From: a virus
Lineage: Duplodnaviria; Heunggongvirae; Uroviricota; Caudoviricetes
Direction: 5' to 3' (one strand)
Length of the DNA stretch: 5,861 nucleotides
IMG/VR virus record: IMGVR_UViG_2534681663_000011
Position 1 is the first letter of the stretch; each line of letters starts with the position of its first letter. Below are positions 1-5,861 of this stretch, one piece after another. A model generated the notes under the pieces. That model saw only the letters and a list, made by a program, of their open reading frames with translations. It was not told the origin of the DNA and searched no databases. The translations under genes and the position numbers were made by a program.

Positions 1-279
1 AATCTGGAGGCCACAGGGCTGTATCAGGTGCCGTTGTCAGCGGCGCAGCCGGGCGATGTGCTGCTGTGCTGTTTTGGTTCATCGGTGCCGAATCATGCCG
101 CCATTTACTGTGGTGACAGCGAGCTGCTGCACCATATTCCTGAACAACTGAGCAAACGAGAGAGGTACACCGACAAATGGCAGCGACGCACACACTCCCT
201 CTGGCGTCACCGGGCATGGCACGCATCTGCCTTTACGGGGATTTACAACGATTTGGCCGCCGCATCGACCTTCGAGTGA
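1..279 (+). CDS. K: Tail tip assembly protein K, C-terminal part (5' end lies outside the window)
   Basis: Frame 1 is open from position 1 to the TGA at 277-279. Translation (...PLSAAQPGDVLLCCFGSSVPNHAAIYCGDSELLHHIPEQLSKRERYTDKWQRRTHSLWRHRAWHASAFTGIYNDLAAASTFE) closely matches the C-terminus of lambda gpK as I recall it, with conserved Cys/His residues consistent with an NlpC/P60-type domain. Its 3' end overlaps the start of I out of frame, as in lambda. Confidence 0.85.
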   Translation, partial: NLEATGLYQVPLSAAQPGDVLLCCFGSSVPNHAAIYCGDSELLHHIPEQLSKRERYTDKWQRRTHSLWRHRAWHASAFTGIYNDLAAASTFE

Positions 280-818
280 AAACGGGGTCCGAAGCCATCC
301 GGGCGCTGGCCATGCAGATCCCGGCATTTCGTCAGAAACTGAGCGACGGCTGGTACCAGGTACGCATTGCCGGGCGTGATGCAGGTGAAACCGAATTGTC
401 TGCCCGTCTTAATGAGCCGCTGGAAAATGGTGCCGTGATCCATATCGTGCCGCGTCTGGCAGGAGCCAAAAGTGGCGGTGTGTTTCAGGCTGTGCTGGGG
501 GCGGCTGTTATGGCGGTTGCTATATGGATGCCGGGGGTAGGAATTATGGCGAGTAATCTGCTGTTTTCTCTCGGTGCCAGTATGACGCTTGGCGGTGTTG
601 CACAGATGCTGGCCCCTAAACCCAAAACCCCCCGCACACAGACAACGGATAACGGCAAACAGAATACCTATTTTTCTTCACTGGATAACATGGTTGCCCA
701 GGGCAATGTTCTGCCGGTTCTGTACGGTGAAATGCGCGTGGGGTCACGCGTGGTTTCTCAGGAGATCAGCACGGCAGACGAAGGGGATGGTGGTCAGGTT
801 GTGGTGATTGGTCGCTGA
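177..818 (+). CDS. I: Tail assembly protein I
   Basis: 213-aa ORF. The N-terminus (MAATHTLPLASPGMARICLYGDLQRFGRRIDLRVKTG...) and C-terminus (...KQNTYFSSLDNMVAQGNVLPVLYGEMRVGSRVVSQEISTADEGDGGQVVVIGR) match lambda gpI as I recall it; the central Gly/Ala-rich hydrophobic stretch differs. The start lies 103 nt inside K in another frame, and the gap to J is 60 nt, the same geometry as lambda. Confidence 0.9.
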   Translation: MAATHTLPLASPGMARICLYGDLQRFGRRIDLRVKTGSEAIRALAMQIPAFRQKLSDGWYQVRIAGRDAGETELSARLNEPLENGAVIHIVPRLAGAKSGGVFQAVLGAAVMAVAIWMPGVGIMASNLLFSLGASMTLGGVAQMLAPKPKTPRTQTTDNGKQNTYFSSLDNMVAQGNVLPVLYGEMRVGSRVVSQEISTADEGDGGQVVVIGR

Positions 819-878: not shown

Positions 879-1766
879 ATGGGTAAAGGCAGCAGTAAGG
901 GGCATACCCCGCGCGAAGCGAAGGACAACCTGAAGTCCACGCAGCTGCTGAGTGTGATCGATGCCATCAGCGAAGGGCCGGTTGAAGGTCCGGTGGATGG
1001 ATTAAAAAGCGTGCTGCTGAACAGTACGCCGGTGCTGGACAGTGAGGGGAATACCAACATCTCCGGTGTCACGGTGGTGTTCCGGGCCGGTGAGCAGGAG
1101 CAGACACCGCCGGAGGGATTTGAATCCTCCGGCTCCGAGACGGTGCTGGGTACGGAAGTGAAATACGACACGCCGATCACCCGGACCATCACGTCGGCAA
1201 ACATCGACCGTCTGCGCTTTACCTTCGGTGTGCAGGCACTGGTGGAAACCACCTCAAAGGGGGACCGGAATCCGTCGGAAGTCCGCCTGCTGGTTCAGAT
1301 ACAGCGTAATGGTGGCTGGGTGACGGAAAAAGACATCACCATTAAAGGCAAAACCACCTCGCAGTATCTGGCATCGGTGGTGGTGGGTAACCTGCCGCCG
1401 CGCCCGTTCAATATCCGGATGCGCAGGATGACGCCGGACAGCACCACAGACCAGCTGCAGAACAAAACGCTCTGGTCGTCATACACCGAAATCATCGATG
1501 TGAAACAGTGCTACCCGAACACGGCACTGGTCGGCGTACAGGTGGATTCGGAGCAGTTCGGCAGCCAGCAGGTGAGCCGTAATTATCATCTGCGCGGGCG
1601 TATTCTGCAGGTGCCGTCGAACTATAACCCGCAGACTCGGCAATACAGCGGTATCTGGGACGGAACGTTTAAGCCAGCATACAGCAACAACATGGCCTGG
1701 TGTCTGTGGGATATGCTGACCCATCCGCGCTACGGCATGGGGAAACGTCTTGGTGCGCGGATGTGA
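879..1766 (+). CDS. J: J N-terminal fragment (295 aa), ended by a premature TGA
   Basis: The ORF translation matches the lambda gpJ N-terminus over its whole length up to ...WCLWDMLTHPRYGMGKRLGA. The same frame reads J-like sequence (KWALYVIGQYCDQSVPDGFGGTEPRITC) immediately after the stop, which indicates a local frame-neutral indel created the stop. Confidence 0.8.
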   Translation: MGKGSSKGHTPREAKDNLKSTQLLSVIDAISEGPVEGPVDGLKSVLLNSTPVLDSEGNTNISGVTVVFRAGEQEQTPPEGFESSGSETVLGTEVKYDTPITRTITSANIDRLRFTFGVQALVETTSKGDRNPSEVRLLVQIQRNGGWVTEKDITIKGKTTSQYLASVVVGNLPPRPFNIRMRRMTPDSTTDQLQNKTLWSSYTEIIDVKQCYPNTALVGVQVDSEQFGSQQVSRNYHLRGRILQVPSNYNPQTRQYSGIWDGTFKPAYSNNMAWCLWDMLTHPRYGMGKRLGARM

Positions 1767-2065
1767 AAATGGGCGCTGTATGTCATCGGCCAGTACTGCG
1801 ACCAGTCGGTGCCGGACGGCTTTGGCGGCACGGAGCCGCGCATCACCTGTAAGCTACCTGACCACACACGAAGGCGTGGGATGTGCTCAGTGATTTCTGC
1901 TCGGCGATGCGCTGTATGCCGGTATGGAACGGGCAGACGCTGAGTTCGTGCAGGACCGACCATCGATAAGGTGTGGACCTATAACCGCAGTAATGTGGTG
2001 ATGCCGGATGATGGGCCCTTCCGCTACAGCTTCAGCGCCCTGAAGACCGCCATAATGCCGTTGAG

Positions 2066-2425
2066 GTGAACTGGATTGACCCGGACAACGGCTGGGAGAC
2101 GGCGACAGAGCTTGTTGAAGATACGCAGGCCATTGCCCGTTACGGTCGTAACGTCACGAAGATGGATGCCTTTGGCTGTACCAGCCGGGGGCAGGCGCAC
2201 CGCGCCGGGCTGTGGCTGATTAAAACGGAACTGCTGGAAACGCAGACCGTGGACTTCAGCGTGGGTGCCGAAGGGCTTCGCCATGTACCGGGCGATGTCA
2301 TTGAAATCTGCGATGATGACTATGCCGGTATCAGCACCGGTGGTCGCGTGCTGGCGGTGAACAGCCAGACCCGGACGCTGACGCTCGACCGTGAAATCAC
2401 GCTGCCATCTCCGGCACCACGCTGA
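2066..2425 (+). CDS. J: J internal fragment, in a different frame from the N-terminal fragment
   Basis: The ORF uses a GTG start as listed in the track. Its translation matches the middle of gpJ (about residues 385-500 of lambda J). The J-like reading in this frame begins about 24 nt upstream at roughly 2042 (EDRHNAVEV). It ends at the TGA at 2423-2425 after ...ITLPSPAPR, where J similarity continues in another frame. Confidence 0.7.
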   Translation: MNWIDPDNGWETATELVEDTQAIARYGRNVTKMDAFGCTSRGQAHRAGLWLIKTELLETQTVDFSVGAEGLRHVPGDVIEICDDDYAGISTGGRVLAVNSQTRTLTLDREITLPSPAPR

Positions 2426-2712
2426 TAAGCCTGGTTGACGGAGGGATCCGGTCAGCGTGGAGGTTCAGTCCGTCACCGACGGCGTGAAGGTGAAAGTGAG
2501 CCGGTTCCTGACGGCGTTGCGAATACAGCGTTGGGGGCTGAAGCTGCCGACGTGCGCCAGCGCCTGTTCCGCTGGTGAGTATCCGTGAGAACGACGACGG
2601 CACGTATGCCATCACGCCGTGCAGCATGTACCGGAAAAAGAGCCATCGTGGATAACGGGGCGCACTTTGACGGCGACCAGAGCGGCACGGTAATGGTGTC
2701 ACGCCGCCAGCG

Positions 2713-4344
2713 GTGCAGCACCTGACCGCGAAGTCACCGCAGACAGCGGGGAATACAGGTGCTGGCCGCTGGGACACGCCGAAGGTGGTGAAGGGCGTGA
2801 GCTTCCTGCTTCGCCTGACCGTGGCAGCGGATGACGGCAGTGAGCGGCTGGTCAGCACGGCCCGGACGACGGAAACCACATACCGCTTCACGCAACTGGC
2901 GCGGGAACTACAGGCTGACAGTCCGGGCGGTAAATGCGTGGGGCAGCAGGGCGATCCGGCATCGGTATCGTTCCGGATTGCCGCACCGGCAGCGCCGTCG
3001 CGGATTGAGCTGACGCCGGGCTATTTTCAGATAACCGCCACGCCGCATCTTGCGGTTTATGATCCGACGGTACAATTTGAGTTCTGGTTCTCGGAAACGC
3101 GGATTACCGATATCAGGCAGGTTGAAACCACAGCCCGCTATCTTGGCACGGGGCTGTACTGGATAGCCGCCAGTATCAATATCAGGCCGGGCCATGATTA
3201 TTACTTTTATATCCGCAGTGTGAACACCGTTGGCAAATCGGCATTCGTGGAGGCTGTCGGTCAGCCGAGTGATGATGCATCAGGCTATCTGGATTTTTTC
3301 AAAGGCGAGATAGGGAAAACCCATCTGGCTCAGGAGCTGTGGACGCAGATTGATAACGGTCAGCTTGCGCCTGACCTGACTGAAATCAGGACGTCCATAA
3401 CGGATGTCAGCAATGAAATAACACAGACCGTCAATAAGAAACTGGAAGACCAGAGTGCAGCGATCCAGCAGATACAGAAGGTTCAGGTTGATACAAATAA
3501 TAACCTGAACAGCATGTGGGCAGTGAAGCTGCAGCAGATGCAGGACGGACGCCTTTATATTGCGGGTATCGGTGCCGGTATTGAGAACACCCCTGACGGC
3601 ATGCAGAGTCAGGTGCTGCTGGCAGCAGACAGGATTGCGATGATTAATCCTGCGAATGGCAACACAAAGCCGATGTTTGTTGGTCAGGGCGATCAGATAT
3701 TCATGAATGAAGTGTTCCTGAAACGCTTGACGGCCCCCACCATTACCAGCGGCGGTAATCCTCCGGCATTTTCCCTGACATCAGACGGGAGACTGACGGC
3801 GAAAAATGCGGATATCAGTGGCAGTGTGAATGCGAACTCAGGAACGCTCAACAATGTCACGATTAACCAGAACTGTACGATTAAGGGCATGCTGGAGGCG
3901 ACCCAGGTCAGAGGAGATTTCGTTAAAGCTGTATCAAAAGCCTTCCCGAAAAAAGTCGGTACGTGGGGTAACACGGAAACACCAAACGGTACGGTTACAG
4001 TCACCATCAGCGATGATCATAACTTTGACCGCCAGATTATTATTCCGCCCATTATTTTTAACGGTATAGCGTATGACGATCCGGGGAGCGGAAATAACCC
4101 AGGAGGCACGCGATACACGGGTTATGGTTTTGAAGTTCGCAAAAACGGCGTATTAATCGCATCCAGAGAAACTAAAGGGGCCATTCCCGGTAGTTACAGT
4201 GCAGTTATTGATATGCCGAGTGGCAGGGGAAGCGTCACTCTGGAGTTTAAGATTTTCCAGAAAGGCAATCAGGGGGCAGGCAATATCACCGACTGTACGG
4301 TGATTGTGACCAAAAAAGCCGCTTCCGGCATCAGTATTCGTTGA
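2713..4344 (+). CDS. J: J C-terminal fragment (543 aa) including the distal, presumed receptor-binding region
   Basis: Long ORF in frame 1 ending at the TGA at 4342-4344. It contains conserved gpJ blocks ([126 protein letters not shown]). The first 12 or so codons are out of the true J frame. A compensating frameshift pair lies near 2900-2945. Confidence 0.8.
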
Positions 4345-4414: not shown

Positions 4415-5014
4415 ATGCGTAAAGTTTGTGTAGCAATTTTGTCCGCAGCCATTTGTCTGGCCGTATCCGGTGCGCCTGCATGGGCGTCTGAACATCAGTC
4501 CACGCTGAGCGCGGGGTATCTTCATGCCTCGACGAACGTCCCCGGCAGCGATGATCTGAACGGGATTAACGTGAAATACCGTTATGAGTTTACGGACACA
4601 CTGGGGCTGGTGACGTCATTCAGCTATGCAGGAGACAAGAATCGCCAGCTGACCCGTTACAGCGATACCCGCTGGCATGAAGATTCCGTTCGTAACCGCT
4701 GGTTCAGCGTAATGGCGGGGCCGTCTGTGCGCGTGAATGAATGGTTCAGCGCGTATGCGATGGCGGGTGTAGCTTACAGCCGTGTGTCGACTTTCTCCGG
4801 GAATTATCTTCGCGTAACTGACAACAAGGGGAAAAAGCACGATGTGCTGACCGGAAGTGATGACGGTCGCCACAGCAACACGTCTCTGGCGTGGGGGGCT
4901 GGCGTGCAGTTTAACCCGACCGAATCCGTGGCCATTGATATTGCTTATGAAGGTTCCGGCAGTGGTGACTGGCGCACTGACGGTTTCATCGTGGGTGTCG
5001 GTTATAAATTCTGA
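4415..5014 (+). CDS. lom: Lom-like outer membrane protein (Ail/Lom/PagC family beta-barrel)
   Basis: 199-aa ORF with a GAGAGG ribosome-binding site 6-11 nt upstream. The N-terminus is a signal peptide (MRKVCVAILSAAICLAVSGAPAWA). The C-terminus (AYEGSGSGDWRTDGFIVGVGYKF) and internal blocks (GINVKYRYE, SVMAGP, SAYAMAGVA) match lambda Lom as I recall it, and the terminal Phe is typical of outer-membrane beta-barrels. Its position between J and stf is as in lambda. Confidence 0.88.
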   Translation: MRKVCVAILSAAICLAVSGAPAWASEHQSTLSAGYLHASTNVPGSDDLNGINVKYRYEFTDTLGLVTSFSYAGDKNRQLTRYSDTRWHEDSVRNRWFSVMAGPSVRVNEWFSAYAMAGVAYSRVSTFSGNYLRVTDNKGKKHDVLTGSDDGRHSNTSLAWGAGVQFNPTESVAIDIAYEGSGSGDWRTDGFIVGVGYKF

Positions 5015-5078: not shown

Positions 5079-5861
5079 ATGGCAGTAAAGATTTCAGGTG
5101 TACTGAAAGACGGCACAGGAAAACCGGTACAGAACTGCACAATCCAGCTGAAAGCAAAACGTAACAGCACCACGGTGGTGGTGAACACGCTGGCCTCAGA
5201 AAATCCGGATGAAGCCGGGCGTTACAGCATGGACGTTGAGTACGGTCAGTACAGCGTTATTCTGTTGGTGGAAGGATTCCCGCCGTCACATGCCGGGACC
5301 ATCACCGTGTATGAAGATTCCCGACCCGGTACGCTGAATGATTTTCTCGGTGCCATGACGGAGGATGATGCCCGTCCGGAGGCACTGCGCCGTTTTGAAC
5401 TGATGGTGGAAGAGGTGGCGCGTAACGCGTCCGCGGTGGCACAGAACACGGCAGCCGCGAAGAAGTCAGCCAGCGATGCCGGCACATCAGCCCGTGAGGC
5501 GGCAACCCATGCGACTGATGCTGCAGGCTCAGCACGCGCAGCCAGCACGTCAGCCGGACAGGCCGCTTCGTCGGCTCAGTCAGCGTCTTCCAGCGCAGGA
5601 ACGGCATCAACAAAGGCCACTGAAGCGGAGAAAAGTGCTGCCGCTGCAGAGTCCTCAAAAAGCGCGGCAGCTACCAGTGCCGGTGCGGCGAAAACGTCAG
5701 AAACGAATGCGGCAGCGTCACAACAATCAGCAGCCACTTCTGCATCCGCCGCGACCACGAAGGCGTCAGAAGCAGCCACCTCAGCCCGGGATGCGGCGGC
5801 CTCAAAAGAGGCAGCGAAATCATCAGAAACGAACGCATCATCAAGCGCCAGTAGTGCCGCT
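5079..5861 (+). CDS. stf: Side tail fiber protein, N-terminal part (3' end lies outside the window)
   Basis: The ATG at 5079 opens a frame that runs without a stop to the window end (261 codons). It was not in the ORF track because it has no stop inside the window. The translation (MAVKISGVLKDGTGKPVQNCTIQLKAKRNSTTVVVNTLASENPDEAGRYSMDVEYGQYSVI...TITVYEDS...MVEEVARNA...) matches the lambda Stf N-terminus as I recall it, followed by the characteristic Ala/Ser/Thr-rich repeat region. Confidence 0.85.
   Translation, partial: MAVKISGVLKDGTGKPVQNCTIQLKAKRNSTTVVVNTLASENPDEAGRYSMDVEYGQYSVILLVEGFPPSHAGTITVYEDSRPGTLNDFLGAMTEDDARPEALRRFELMVEEVARNASAVAQNTAAAKKSASDAGTSAREAATHATDAAGSARAASTSAGQAASSAQSASSSAGTASTKATEAEKSAAAAESSKSAAATSAGAAKTSETNAAASQQSAATSASAATTKASEAATSARDAAASKEAAKSSETNASSSASSAA

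Follow-up and report, generated by a model that had tools for sequence, protein, structure and literature searches.

Probable assembly origin of the 32 frameshifts in the prophage gene J of a draft Escherichia coli contig

The tail tip gene J on a prophage contig of E. coli 2865200 lacks 32 single bases, most of which fall at sites where natural J alleles differ. We conclude that these lesions are very probably an assembly artefact, in which two J alleles were merged and no base was emitted at their SNPs. The prophage J gene itself is most likely ordinary and intact in the strain, and the lesions represent nothing biologically new. The window analysed here is the entire 5,861-bp contig AQDJ01000090.1 of the draft assembly GCA_000354975.1. 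Its content is solely a commonly repeated prophage module with the gene order K-I-J-lom-stf, as in lambda (Table 1).

Table 1. Genes, deposited J fragments and lesions in the 5,861-bp window
Feature	Coordinates	Strand	Remarks
K, 3′ part (C40/NlpC-P60 peptidase)	1..279	+	PF00877 gene call; truncated at contig start; zero indels vs STE15
I, tail assembly	216..818	+	PF06805 Lambda_tail_I gene call; intact, 200 aa; zero indels vs STE15
J, tail tip attachment, as deposited	879..4344	+	3,466 nt vs 3,498 nt in intact relatives
J fragment 1	879..1766	+	frame 0, 295 aa, EMV84283.1
J fragment 2	2066..2425	+	frame 2, 119 aa, EMV84285.1
J fragment 3	2713..4344	+	frame 1, 543 aa, EMV84287.1
Lesion zone	1756..2943	+	32 single-base omissions; J nt 879-2097; alignment-based
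Omissions, one base after each position	1757, 1765, 1766, 1852, 1854, 1868, 1870, 1943, 1964, 2014, 2016, 2018, 2045, 2409, 2445, 2446, 2504, 2520, 2531, 2552, 2574, 2615, 2641, 2691, 2729, 2755, 2767, 2902, 2905, 2943
Omission, two bases after the position	2443
Premature TGA	1764..1766	+	intact GTG GAT/C AAA appears as GTGAAAA; bases lost on either side
lom (Ail/Lom outer-membrane beta-barrel)	4415..5014	+	intact, 199 aa; zero indels vs STE15
stf (side tail fibre), 5′ part	5079..5861	+	gene call; continues past contig end

The reading frame of K is intact, and its counterpart in the relatives is annotated as a C40 family peptidase. The counterpart of stf is annotated there as a prophage tail fibre N-terminal domain protein. 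In contrast to an uninterrupted J ORF, the deposited J shows 32 frame changes and a premature TGA. Besides the three fragments listed in Table 1, it is readable only as small pieces. The submitter deposited the fragments as proteins, each of which occurs on a single contig only. Since the protein records already correspond to the truncated fragments, the loss of bases predates deposition, and a stripping of ambiguity codes after deposition was rejected on the same ground.

The 32-nt shortfall relative to the J of the closest relatives resolves completely into single-base deletions under a linear gap cost. The alignments were made with three references and with a set of 83 J genes whose mutual alignment has no gaps. 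A profile alignment in which any observed allele could be matched left the gap placement too free; single-reference linear-gap alignments were adopted instead, and the null was treated identically. The placement of an omission within a short run is uncertain by 1-4 nt. All 32 missing nucleotides lie within 1.2 kb, none is missing from the other 4.6 kb of the contig, and there are no insertions. Compared with the intact STE15 prophage, no indels occur in J on either side of the zone (879-1755 and 2944-4344) or anywhere on the contig outside J, and gap-free neighbours of the J flanks were found at 99.5-99.6% identity. The J frame resumes past the premature TGA because the losses after 1756/1757, 1764/1765 and 1766 total -3. 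Other groups of deletions are likewise frame-neutral, for example those after 2014/2016/2018. The preliminary description of this DNA had reported the split of J over frames 0, 2 and 1, the premature TGA with resumption of the same frame, additional frame-neutral indel groups and cleanly reading flanks, and all of these are confirmed. It had also spoken of mostly 1-2 nt deletions and of three or more frames. The deletions and the loss of frame stand, but every lesion is a single-base deletion and the frame changes 32 times.

The distribution of the missing bases is far from random. Thirty of the 32 are compatible with a site that is polymorphic among 79 distinct J alleles (null 0.21, P=1.5e-18), and 28 can be placed at codon position 3 (P=1e-5). 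If only the 20 unambiguous placements are considered, 19 are polymorphic at MAF≥0.03 (P=3e-14), all 20 are variable and 17 occupy position 3. The dropped bases thus coincide with differences between J copies, as is expected of a mixed-allele consensus. The limits of the zone are not explained by the diversity profile along J, as the flanks are equally polymorphic in the population. It had been held that the sequence alone cannot decide between decay of the gene and error; the comparison with other J alleles does decide.

Several dropped stretches are reproduced exactly by pairs of natural alleles. In five dense clusters the string of the window is identical to the string on which two observed haplotypes agree. 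Over J nt 955-1199 the alleles L011 and L067 show exactly 10 differences, and these are exactly the 10 dropped sites, among them the rare codon-position-2 site J 1073. All 13 sites dropped in J 879-1179 are L011/L067 differences (13/13), and over J 827-1218 the window is identical to L011 at every retained site. Between the alleles L075 and L082, the sole differences over J 1761-1917 are six consecutive dropped sites. The exact fits are provided by segment-level allele pairs only. Of the 91 alleles examined, no two together match the whole 1.2-kb zone; the best pairs cover 245 nt and about 160 nt. The best pair among 83 IMG/VR and reference alleles differs at 11 dropped but also at 8 retained sites, and the 8 best complete-genome matches fall into two haplotype classes that differ at 14-21 dropped and 22-28 retained sites.

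Restoration of one base per site yields a J gene of 3,498 nt with a single 1,165-codon ORF and no internal stops. The intact relatives also have 1,165 codons, and not the about 1150 previously assumed. The repaired J and the STE15 J are identical at 1154 of 1166 positions; within the zone, 22 of the codon differences are synonymous and four non-synonymous. The repaired protein matches the Pfam families PF24801, PF13550, PF24421, PF24489, PF09327 and PF12421, all far above the cut-offs, whereas the deposited fragments carry the same gpJ domains piecemeal. With lambda gpJ, a member of the TipJ family, it shares the domains FNIII-A_GpJ, Phage-tail_3, Ig_J, Ig_J_second, Phage_Tail_Tip and Ig_GpJ_C, and the genes share the order K-I-J-lom-stf. 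Residues 1-836 match residues 1-836 of the solved lambda gpJ structure 8iyk_J (E=0, 2150 bits), and the strong match is limited to this part. The lambda chain comprises 1,132 aa compared with 1,165 aa in the repaired J, whose C-terminal receptor-binding part is a variant relative to lambda gpJ. Unlike lambda gpJ, the deposited J is unreadable owing to the artefact.

In 5,426 complete E. coli genomes with a total of 15,242 J places, no place showed the deletions; the best identity was 96.6%. These genomes contain a median of 3 J-like places each, and up to 14-15. A 33-mer spanning three deletions had no exact match in a genome contig collection with one genome per species, but an exact-match scan of viral contigs with the same 33-mer led to a second affected draft, the contig AQAA01000221.1 of E. 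coli P0302293.10. This contig carries 70 deletions in J nt 1-2110 and no insertions there; 62 of the 70 are at polymorphic sites (P=6e-34) and 64 are compatible with codon position 3. It shows no lesions outside the L-to-stf module, and its tube and tape-measure genes are intact. Within the zone, 16 sites are shared by both drafts, 16 are dropped in the window only and 44 only in P0302293.10, which has 60 in total, so that the two sets are not nested. The recurrence of the same indels in another isolate had been named as a refutation of the error interpretation. Such a recurrence exists for 16 of the 32 sites, but it does not refute error, because P0302293.10 is itself a draft with the same artefact signature and non-nested sites. 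A further candidate, the 294-aa J fragment KDX24941.1, was rejected as a third instance since it is merely cut by a contig end.

We propose the following origin of the lesions. Strain 2865200 most likely contains two lambdoid prophages with the K-I-J-lom-stf module in common, so that a second J allele would be co-resident in the strain. Over J nt 879-2097 the two J copies would differ by about 2.6%; elsewhere they would be either identical or not co-assembled. A single short repeat contig would have been built from the reads of both copies. At the mixed columns no base would have been emitted, because either neither allele beat the gap call or ambiguous calls were stripped out ahead of annotation; removal of ambiguity codes before deposition is a possible variant of the artefact. 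Each SNP would in this way have become a 1-nt deletion, and their sum would account for the 32 frameshifts, the premature TGA and the three spurious 'proteins'. A majority-rule consensus normally chooses one allele and not a gap, so that this origin requires some special behaviour of the pipeline. The bases would have been dropped at a software step; one candidate is a consensus drawn from gap-aware multi-alignments, as in the Celera Assembler. The draft of P0302293.10 is of contemporaneous accession and has the same annotation style as that of strain 2865200. Accession series, annotation vocabulary and strain naming suggest that both drafts came from a common pipeline. A strain series that apparently includes P0302293.10 was sequenced on Illumina at >200x and assembled with the Celera Assembler (PMC4462620); both strains are tied to this paper by strain naming and accession series only.

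In a literature search, no published description of a consensus emitting 1-nt deletions at mixed columns was found. The closest known errors are those of collapsed repeats, in which paralogues are merged. These likewise give a short contig of a multi-copy module with errors at the copy differences and clean flanks, and they are likewise absent from finished genomes. They usually result in a chimeric consensus or a contig break, however, whereas in this contig each of the mixed columns would have turned into a 1-nt deletion. The resulting pattern mimics a heavily frameshifted pseudogene, unlike the usual outcome of a collapsed repeat.

The same consensus artefact could also have arisen with DNA of another strain as the second template, through mixed culture, carry-over or index bleed. 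The signature requires just two templates, and the series to which P0302293.10 appears to belong has many isolates per patient, which were processed together (PMC4462620). We nevertheless regard a foreign template as unlikely. Mixed columns would be expected at all differences between the strains and not in one 1.2-kb patch of a prophage gene, and the flanks in the window are clean despite a population polymorphism equal to that of the zone. The lesions of P0302293.10 are limited to the module that lambdoid prophages share, and multiple copies of J are the norm in E. coli.

According to a second reading, which the preliminary description had offered as one of two options, the J of a cryptic prophage physically acquired 32 single-base deletions and its tail tip can no longer be built. 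E. coli commonly carries cryptic lambdoid prophages whose tail genes are broken, both the deposited sequence and the annotation by the submitter show the deletions, and 16 of the sites recur in a second record. Real decay is nevertheless very unlikely, and this option is not upheld. Mutation has no reason to favour SNP and wobble sites (P about 1e-18; 20/20 unambiguous sites variable); the lesions of a pseudogene should be indifferent to codon position and polymorphism. A pseudogene is also expected to show mixed lesion types and relaxed selection. The J lesions are 1-nt deletions only; insertions, nonsense substitutions and larger deletions are all absent, and the repaired ORF is clean, its zone being as rich in synonymous differences (22:4) as the flanks. 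K, I, lom and the remaining part of J are untouched, and none of the J copies in the finished genomes carries the deletions. The inheritance of one decayed allele by both strains is ruled out, since their deletion sets are not nested.

The deletions could also be real if recombination between co-resident J alleles had formed a heteroduplex in which each mismatch was resolved by the loss of one base. This is extremely unlikely; if true, recombination between diverged sequences would have a mutagenic effect not described before, by which duplicated prophage genes are inactivated exactly at their SNPs.

Homopolymer-length miscalls localised to the zone, of the undercall type known from 454, Ion Torrent and nanopore data, can practically be dismissed. 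Every lesion is a 1-nt deletion and a few do lie in G/C runs, for example in the G5 run at 2939-2943. The run-length test, however, refutes this explanation: 20 of the 32 deleted bases are in no run, and five lie in runs ≥3 (null 0.11), which is no enrichment (P=0.27). The earlier claim that the lesions often lie in G/C runs, with a homopolymer bias, is therefore not supported. Miscalls of this kind would also be expected to scatter over the whole contig and to include insertions, unlike the pattern in the zone, and the platform of the related strain series was Illumina at >200x (PMC4462620). Homopolymer errors of this kind can be seen in E. coli ET82 (NZ_CP101005.1), a long-read-only assembly that also yields 'frameshifted' prophage genes in public records. 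Its indels relative to the window fall in A5-6 and G4-6 runs and are dispersed across K, I, J and lom, whereas the lesions of the window are found in a single 1.2-kb zone, at SNP sites most of which are not part of a run. The second of the two earlier options, localised error, had been slightly favoured on the grounds of indel density and homopolymer bias. It holds in its version of a collapsed repeat among lambdoid prophages and not in that of homopolymer undercalls, the missing bases being mostly wobble SNPs. Programmed ribosomal frameshifting, for which one or two shifts at a conserved slippery site common to the homologues would be expected, was rejected, as 32 shifts would be required here and none in the 83 homologues, which are gap-free over J 1-2300.

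The combined test of codon position and SNP sites can separate pseudogenes from consensus artefacts with a sequence and a panel of homologues, and it does not require reads. At least one further draft of contemporaneous accession is affected, and more heavily than the window. The pseudogene counts, prophage-integrity calls and pangenome gene counts of the batch may therefore be inflated for any multi-copy gene. Spurious proteins derived from the broken J have already entered public databases as EMV84283.1/WP_001711269.1, EMV84285.1/WP_001711272.1, EMV84287.1 and UniRef100 entries.

The ORFs of the window follow the order of the lambda tail-tip module, from the end of K through I, J and lom to the start of stf. 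By exact protein look-up, the window corresponds in full length to AQDJ01000090.1, a contig of 5,861 bp in the draft assembly GCA_000354975.1 of E. coli 2865200. The proteins EMV84283.1, EMV84285.1 and EMV84287.1, each found on one contig in an exact look-up among about 15 billion proteins, are the submitter's own and are fragments of J. The lesions are therefore part of the deposited record and do not stem from later data handling.

Features of the window and deposited fragments of J
Feature	Position (nt)	Protein	Length	Source
K, 3′ end	1-279			ORF layout
I	216-818			ORF layout
J	879-4344			ORF layout
lom	4415-5014			ORF layout
stf, 5′ start	5079-5861			ORF layout
J fragment	879-1766	EMV84283.1 / WP_001711269.1 / UniRef100_UPI0002C9FAB6	295 aa	submitter's protein
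J fragment	2066-2425	EMV84285.1 / WP_001711272.1 / UniRef100_UPI0002CA7372	119 aa	submitter's protein
J fragment	2713-4344	EMV84287.1	543 aa	submitter's protein

J-like DNA of 95-97% identity is plentiful in phages and E. coli genomes. In the window J measures 3,466 nt, compared with 3,498 nt in intact relatives. Global alignment with three relatives places all length differences within 1756-2943 (J nt 879-2097), each being a deletion in the window, and global alignment with the intact STE15 prophage shows no indels outside this zone across 5.86 kb. Over J nt 1-2300, 83 other J genes are mutually gap-free; gaps occur in the window alone, in 32 columns. A linear gap cost was used to resolve the 2-3-nt gaps flanked by mismatches. 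These gaps and the adjacent mismatches then separate into single-base losses with zero mismatch, as in the 'TGC' gap after 2014, which breaks up into separate losses at J 1146, 1149 and 1152. All losses are thus of single bases, giving 32 frame changes in J. The TGA at 1764-1766, downstream of which the original frame resumes, is present as stated in the preliminary description.

Compared with STE15, 21 of the 23 single-base gaps can be placed at the third codon position. For the polymorphism test, a site counted as polymorphic if its minor allele frequency in a set of 79 distinct J alleles was 0.03 or higher, and one placement rule was applied to both the observed deletions and the null. The deleted base is compatible with a polymorphic site in 30/32 cases (0.21 expected, P=1.5e-18) and with codon position 3 in 28/32 (P=1e-5). 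Twenty deletions are placed unambiguously; 19 are polymorphic (P=3e-14), 17 lie at codon position 3 and none of the 20 is invariant across the alleles. Most distances from one lesion to the next are divisible by three. This preference for SNP sites is expected of a two-allele consensus, and there is no reason for it under decay or base-calling error.

The missing bases can be reconstructed from natural alleles. In the five densest clusters, the window string is exactly that of two observed haplotypes minus their differing columns. The natural J alleles L011 and L067 show exactly ten differences over J 955-1199 (245 nt), and the window lacks precisely these ten bases, with the lone rare codon-position-2 site, 1073, among them. 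Over J 879-1179, 13/13 dropped sites are L011/L067 differences, and the window is identical to L011 at all retained sites of J 827-1218. The alleles L075 and L082 differ over J 1761-1917 solely at six consecutive dropped sites. The nearest complete-genome alleles form two haplotype classes, differing at 44-66% of dropped versus about 2% of retained sites. One allele pair accounting for the whole zone was not found in the allele panels compared.

In 5,426 complete E. coli genomes with 15,242 J-like places, the window's deletions do not occur at any of these places, and the best identity of 96.6% corresponds to the 32 gaps and about ten SNPs; each flank has neighbours that align to it without gaps at 99.5-99.6%. 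A 33-mer spanning three deletions gave one further exact match, in the IMG/VR locus L084, part of contig AQAA01000221.1 (also L095) of E. coli P0302293.10. The sequence of L084 differs from the window and shows the same lesion type in more severe form. In J nt 1-2110, the stretch quantified, 70 single bases are deleted and insertions are absent. Polymorphic sites account for 62 of the 70 (P=6e-34), and 64 could lie at codon position 3. On this 27-kb contig the genes for tube, tape-measure, M, distal fibre and tfa are intact, and L, K, I, J, lom and the N-terminus of stf carry single-base deletions at SNP sites (L095 about 5993-13440). The shredded L-to-stf stretch is a module common to lambdoid prophages. 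Within the window's zone, 16 deletion sites are common, 16 are confined to the window and 44 to L084; such non-nested sets imply recurrence at common SNP sites rather than inheritance of one decayed allele. Bases are absent exactly at inter-allele SNPs, in an event that is recurrent and, among the genomes compared, specific to these drafts. The WGS prefixes AQDJ and AQAA belong to one series, and the two records use identical annotation vocabulary. For ETEC isolates named 'P0xxxxxx.N', Illumina HiSeq2000 reads at >200x are reported to have been assembled at one centre with the Celera Assembler (PMC4462620), and both E. coli 2865200 and P0302293.10 appear to be linked to this series.

We propose that reads from two J alleles diverging by about 2.6% (32 differences over 1,219 nt, with local densities reaching 7 per 100 nt) entered one multi-alignment. 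In a mixed column, neither base would have outscored the gap state and no base would have been called; alternatively, an ambiguous call may have been stripped before annotation. Assemblers of the overlap-layout-consensus type accept mismatches at the level of a few per cent and apply gap-aware column refinement, which makes a gap outcome at SNP columns plausible. A literature search found no published description of such consensus behaviour. E. coli genomes contain a median of three J-like places, and up to 14-15, so co-resident alleles are the rule. Diversity is even along J, and the limits of the zone must therefore stem from the overlap or difference of the second template, not from a property of J. 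The J lesions very probably arose as an artefact of assembly or consensus calling and do not reflect the biology of the prophage. Origin of the second template from a contaminating strain rather than a co-resident prophage fits poorly, since the lesions are restricted to a module shared by prophages.

Real decay of J is rejected because the lesions favour SNP sites, are all of one type and recur as a non-nested set in the second draft, and because the repaired ORF is clean. When one base is restored per site, J becomes a single 1,165-codon ORF of 3,498 nt with zero internal stops, identical to STE15 J at 1154/1166 positions. Within the zone, 22 codons differ synonymously and 4 non-synonymously, and the flanks are similar. 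All domains of gpJ are present in the repaired protein, which matches solved lambda gpJ (8iyk_J) with 2150 bits. The underlying J is most likely healthy; a genuine 32-frameshift gene would not look so.

Homopolymer error is ruled out by the run-length test: 20/32 deleted bases lie in no run, and runs of at least 3 are not enriched (P=0.27). The preliminary description, leaning slightly towards sequencing or assembly error, was right about a collapsed repeat and wrong about a G/C-run bias. The contrast with E. coli ET82 supports the rejection of homopolymer error, its indels relative to the window falling within A5/A6 and G4-G6 runs and being spread over K, I, J and lom. This record (L001, NZ_CP101005.1) is the closest overall relative, with all four genes annotated 'frameshifted', indels at window 613, 3949, 4272 and 4893, and a 7-nt tandem CCCTAAA duplication in I. 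Its indels have the appearance of true homopolymer-type assembly error and were used as the contrast class.

Within the zone, window 2046-2409 (J nt 1180-1544) is a stretch of 366 nt that has zero dropped bases and yields the 119-aa fragment. Population polymorphism here equals that of other stretches; the merged alleles were presumably identical across it. Just 3′ of the zone, window 3001-3250 differs from the overall closest relatives by 16-19 substitutions per 250 nt; unlike these, other genomes match window 2945-4344 at 99.5-99.6%. A mosaic junction in J adjoins the right edge of the zone. At the left edge (J 879), a contig of another draft (L094, JNQB01000043.1, 6001-6881) stops within 2 nt, at J nt 881. 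Co-resident J alleles may often begin diverging near J 879, with other assemblers breaking the contig there, an impression that cluster membership criteria may bias.

The pattern yields a simple reads-free diagnostic and a warning of spurious pseudogenes and proteins from this draft batch. The artefactual J fragments now stand as separate database proteins, one of the three under the name 'fibronectin type III family protein'. In the protein clusters related to window 2066-2425 and to the tail fibre of L084, several NCBI records title prophage tail-fibre proteins 'short-chain fatty acid transporter', probably through annotation propagation. In the same clusters HCL3630571.1, a J fragment from a contig of 636 nt, bears the label Pseudomonas aeruginosa, probably through contamination.
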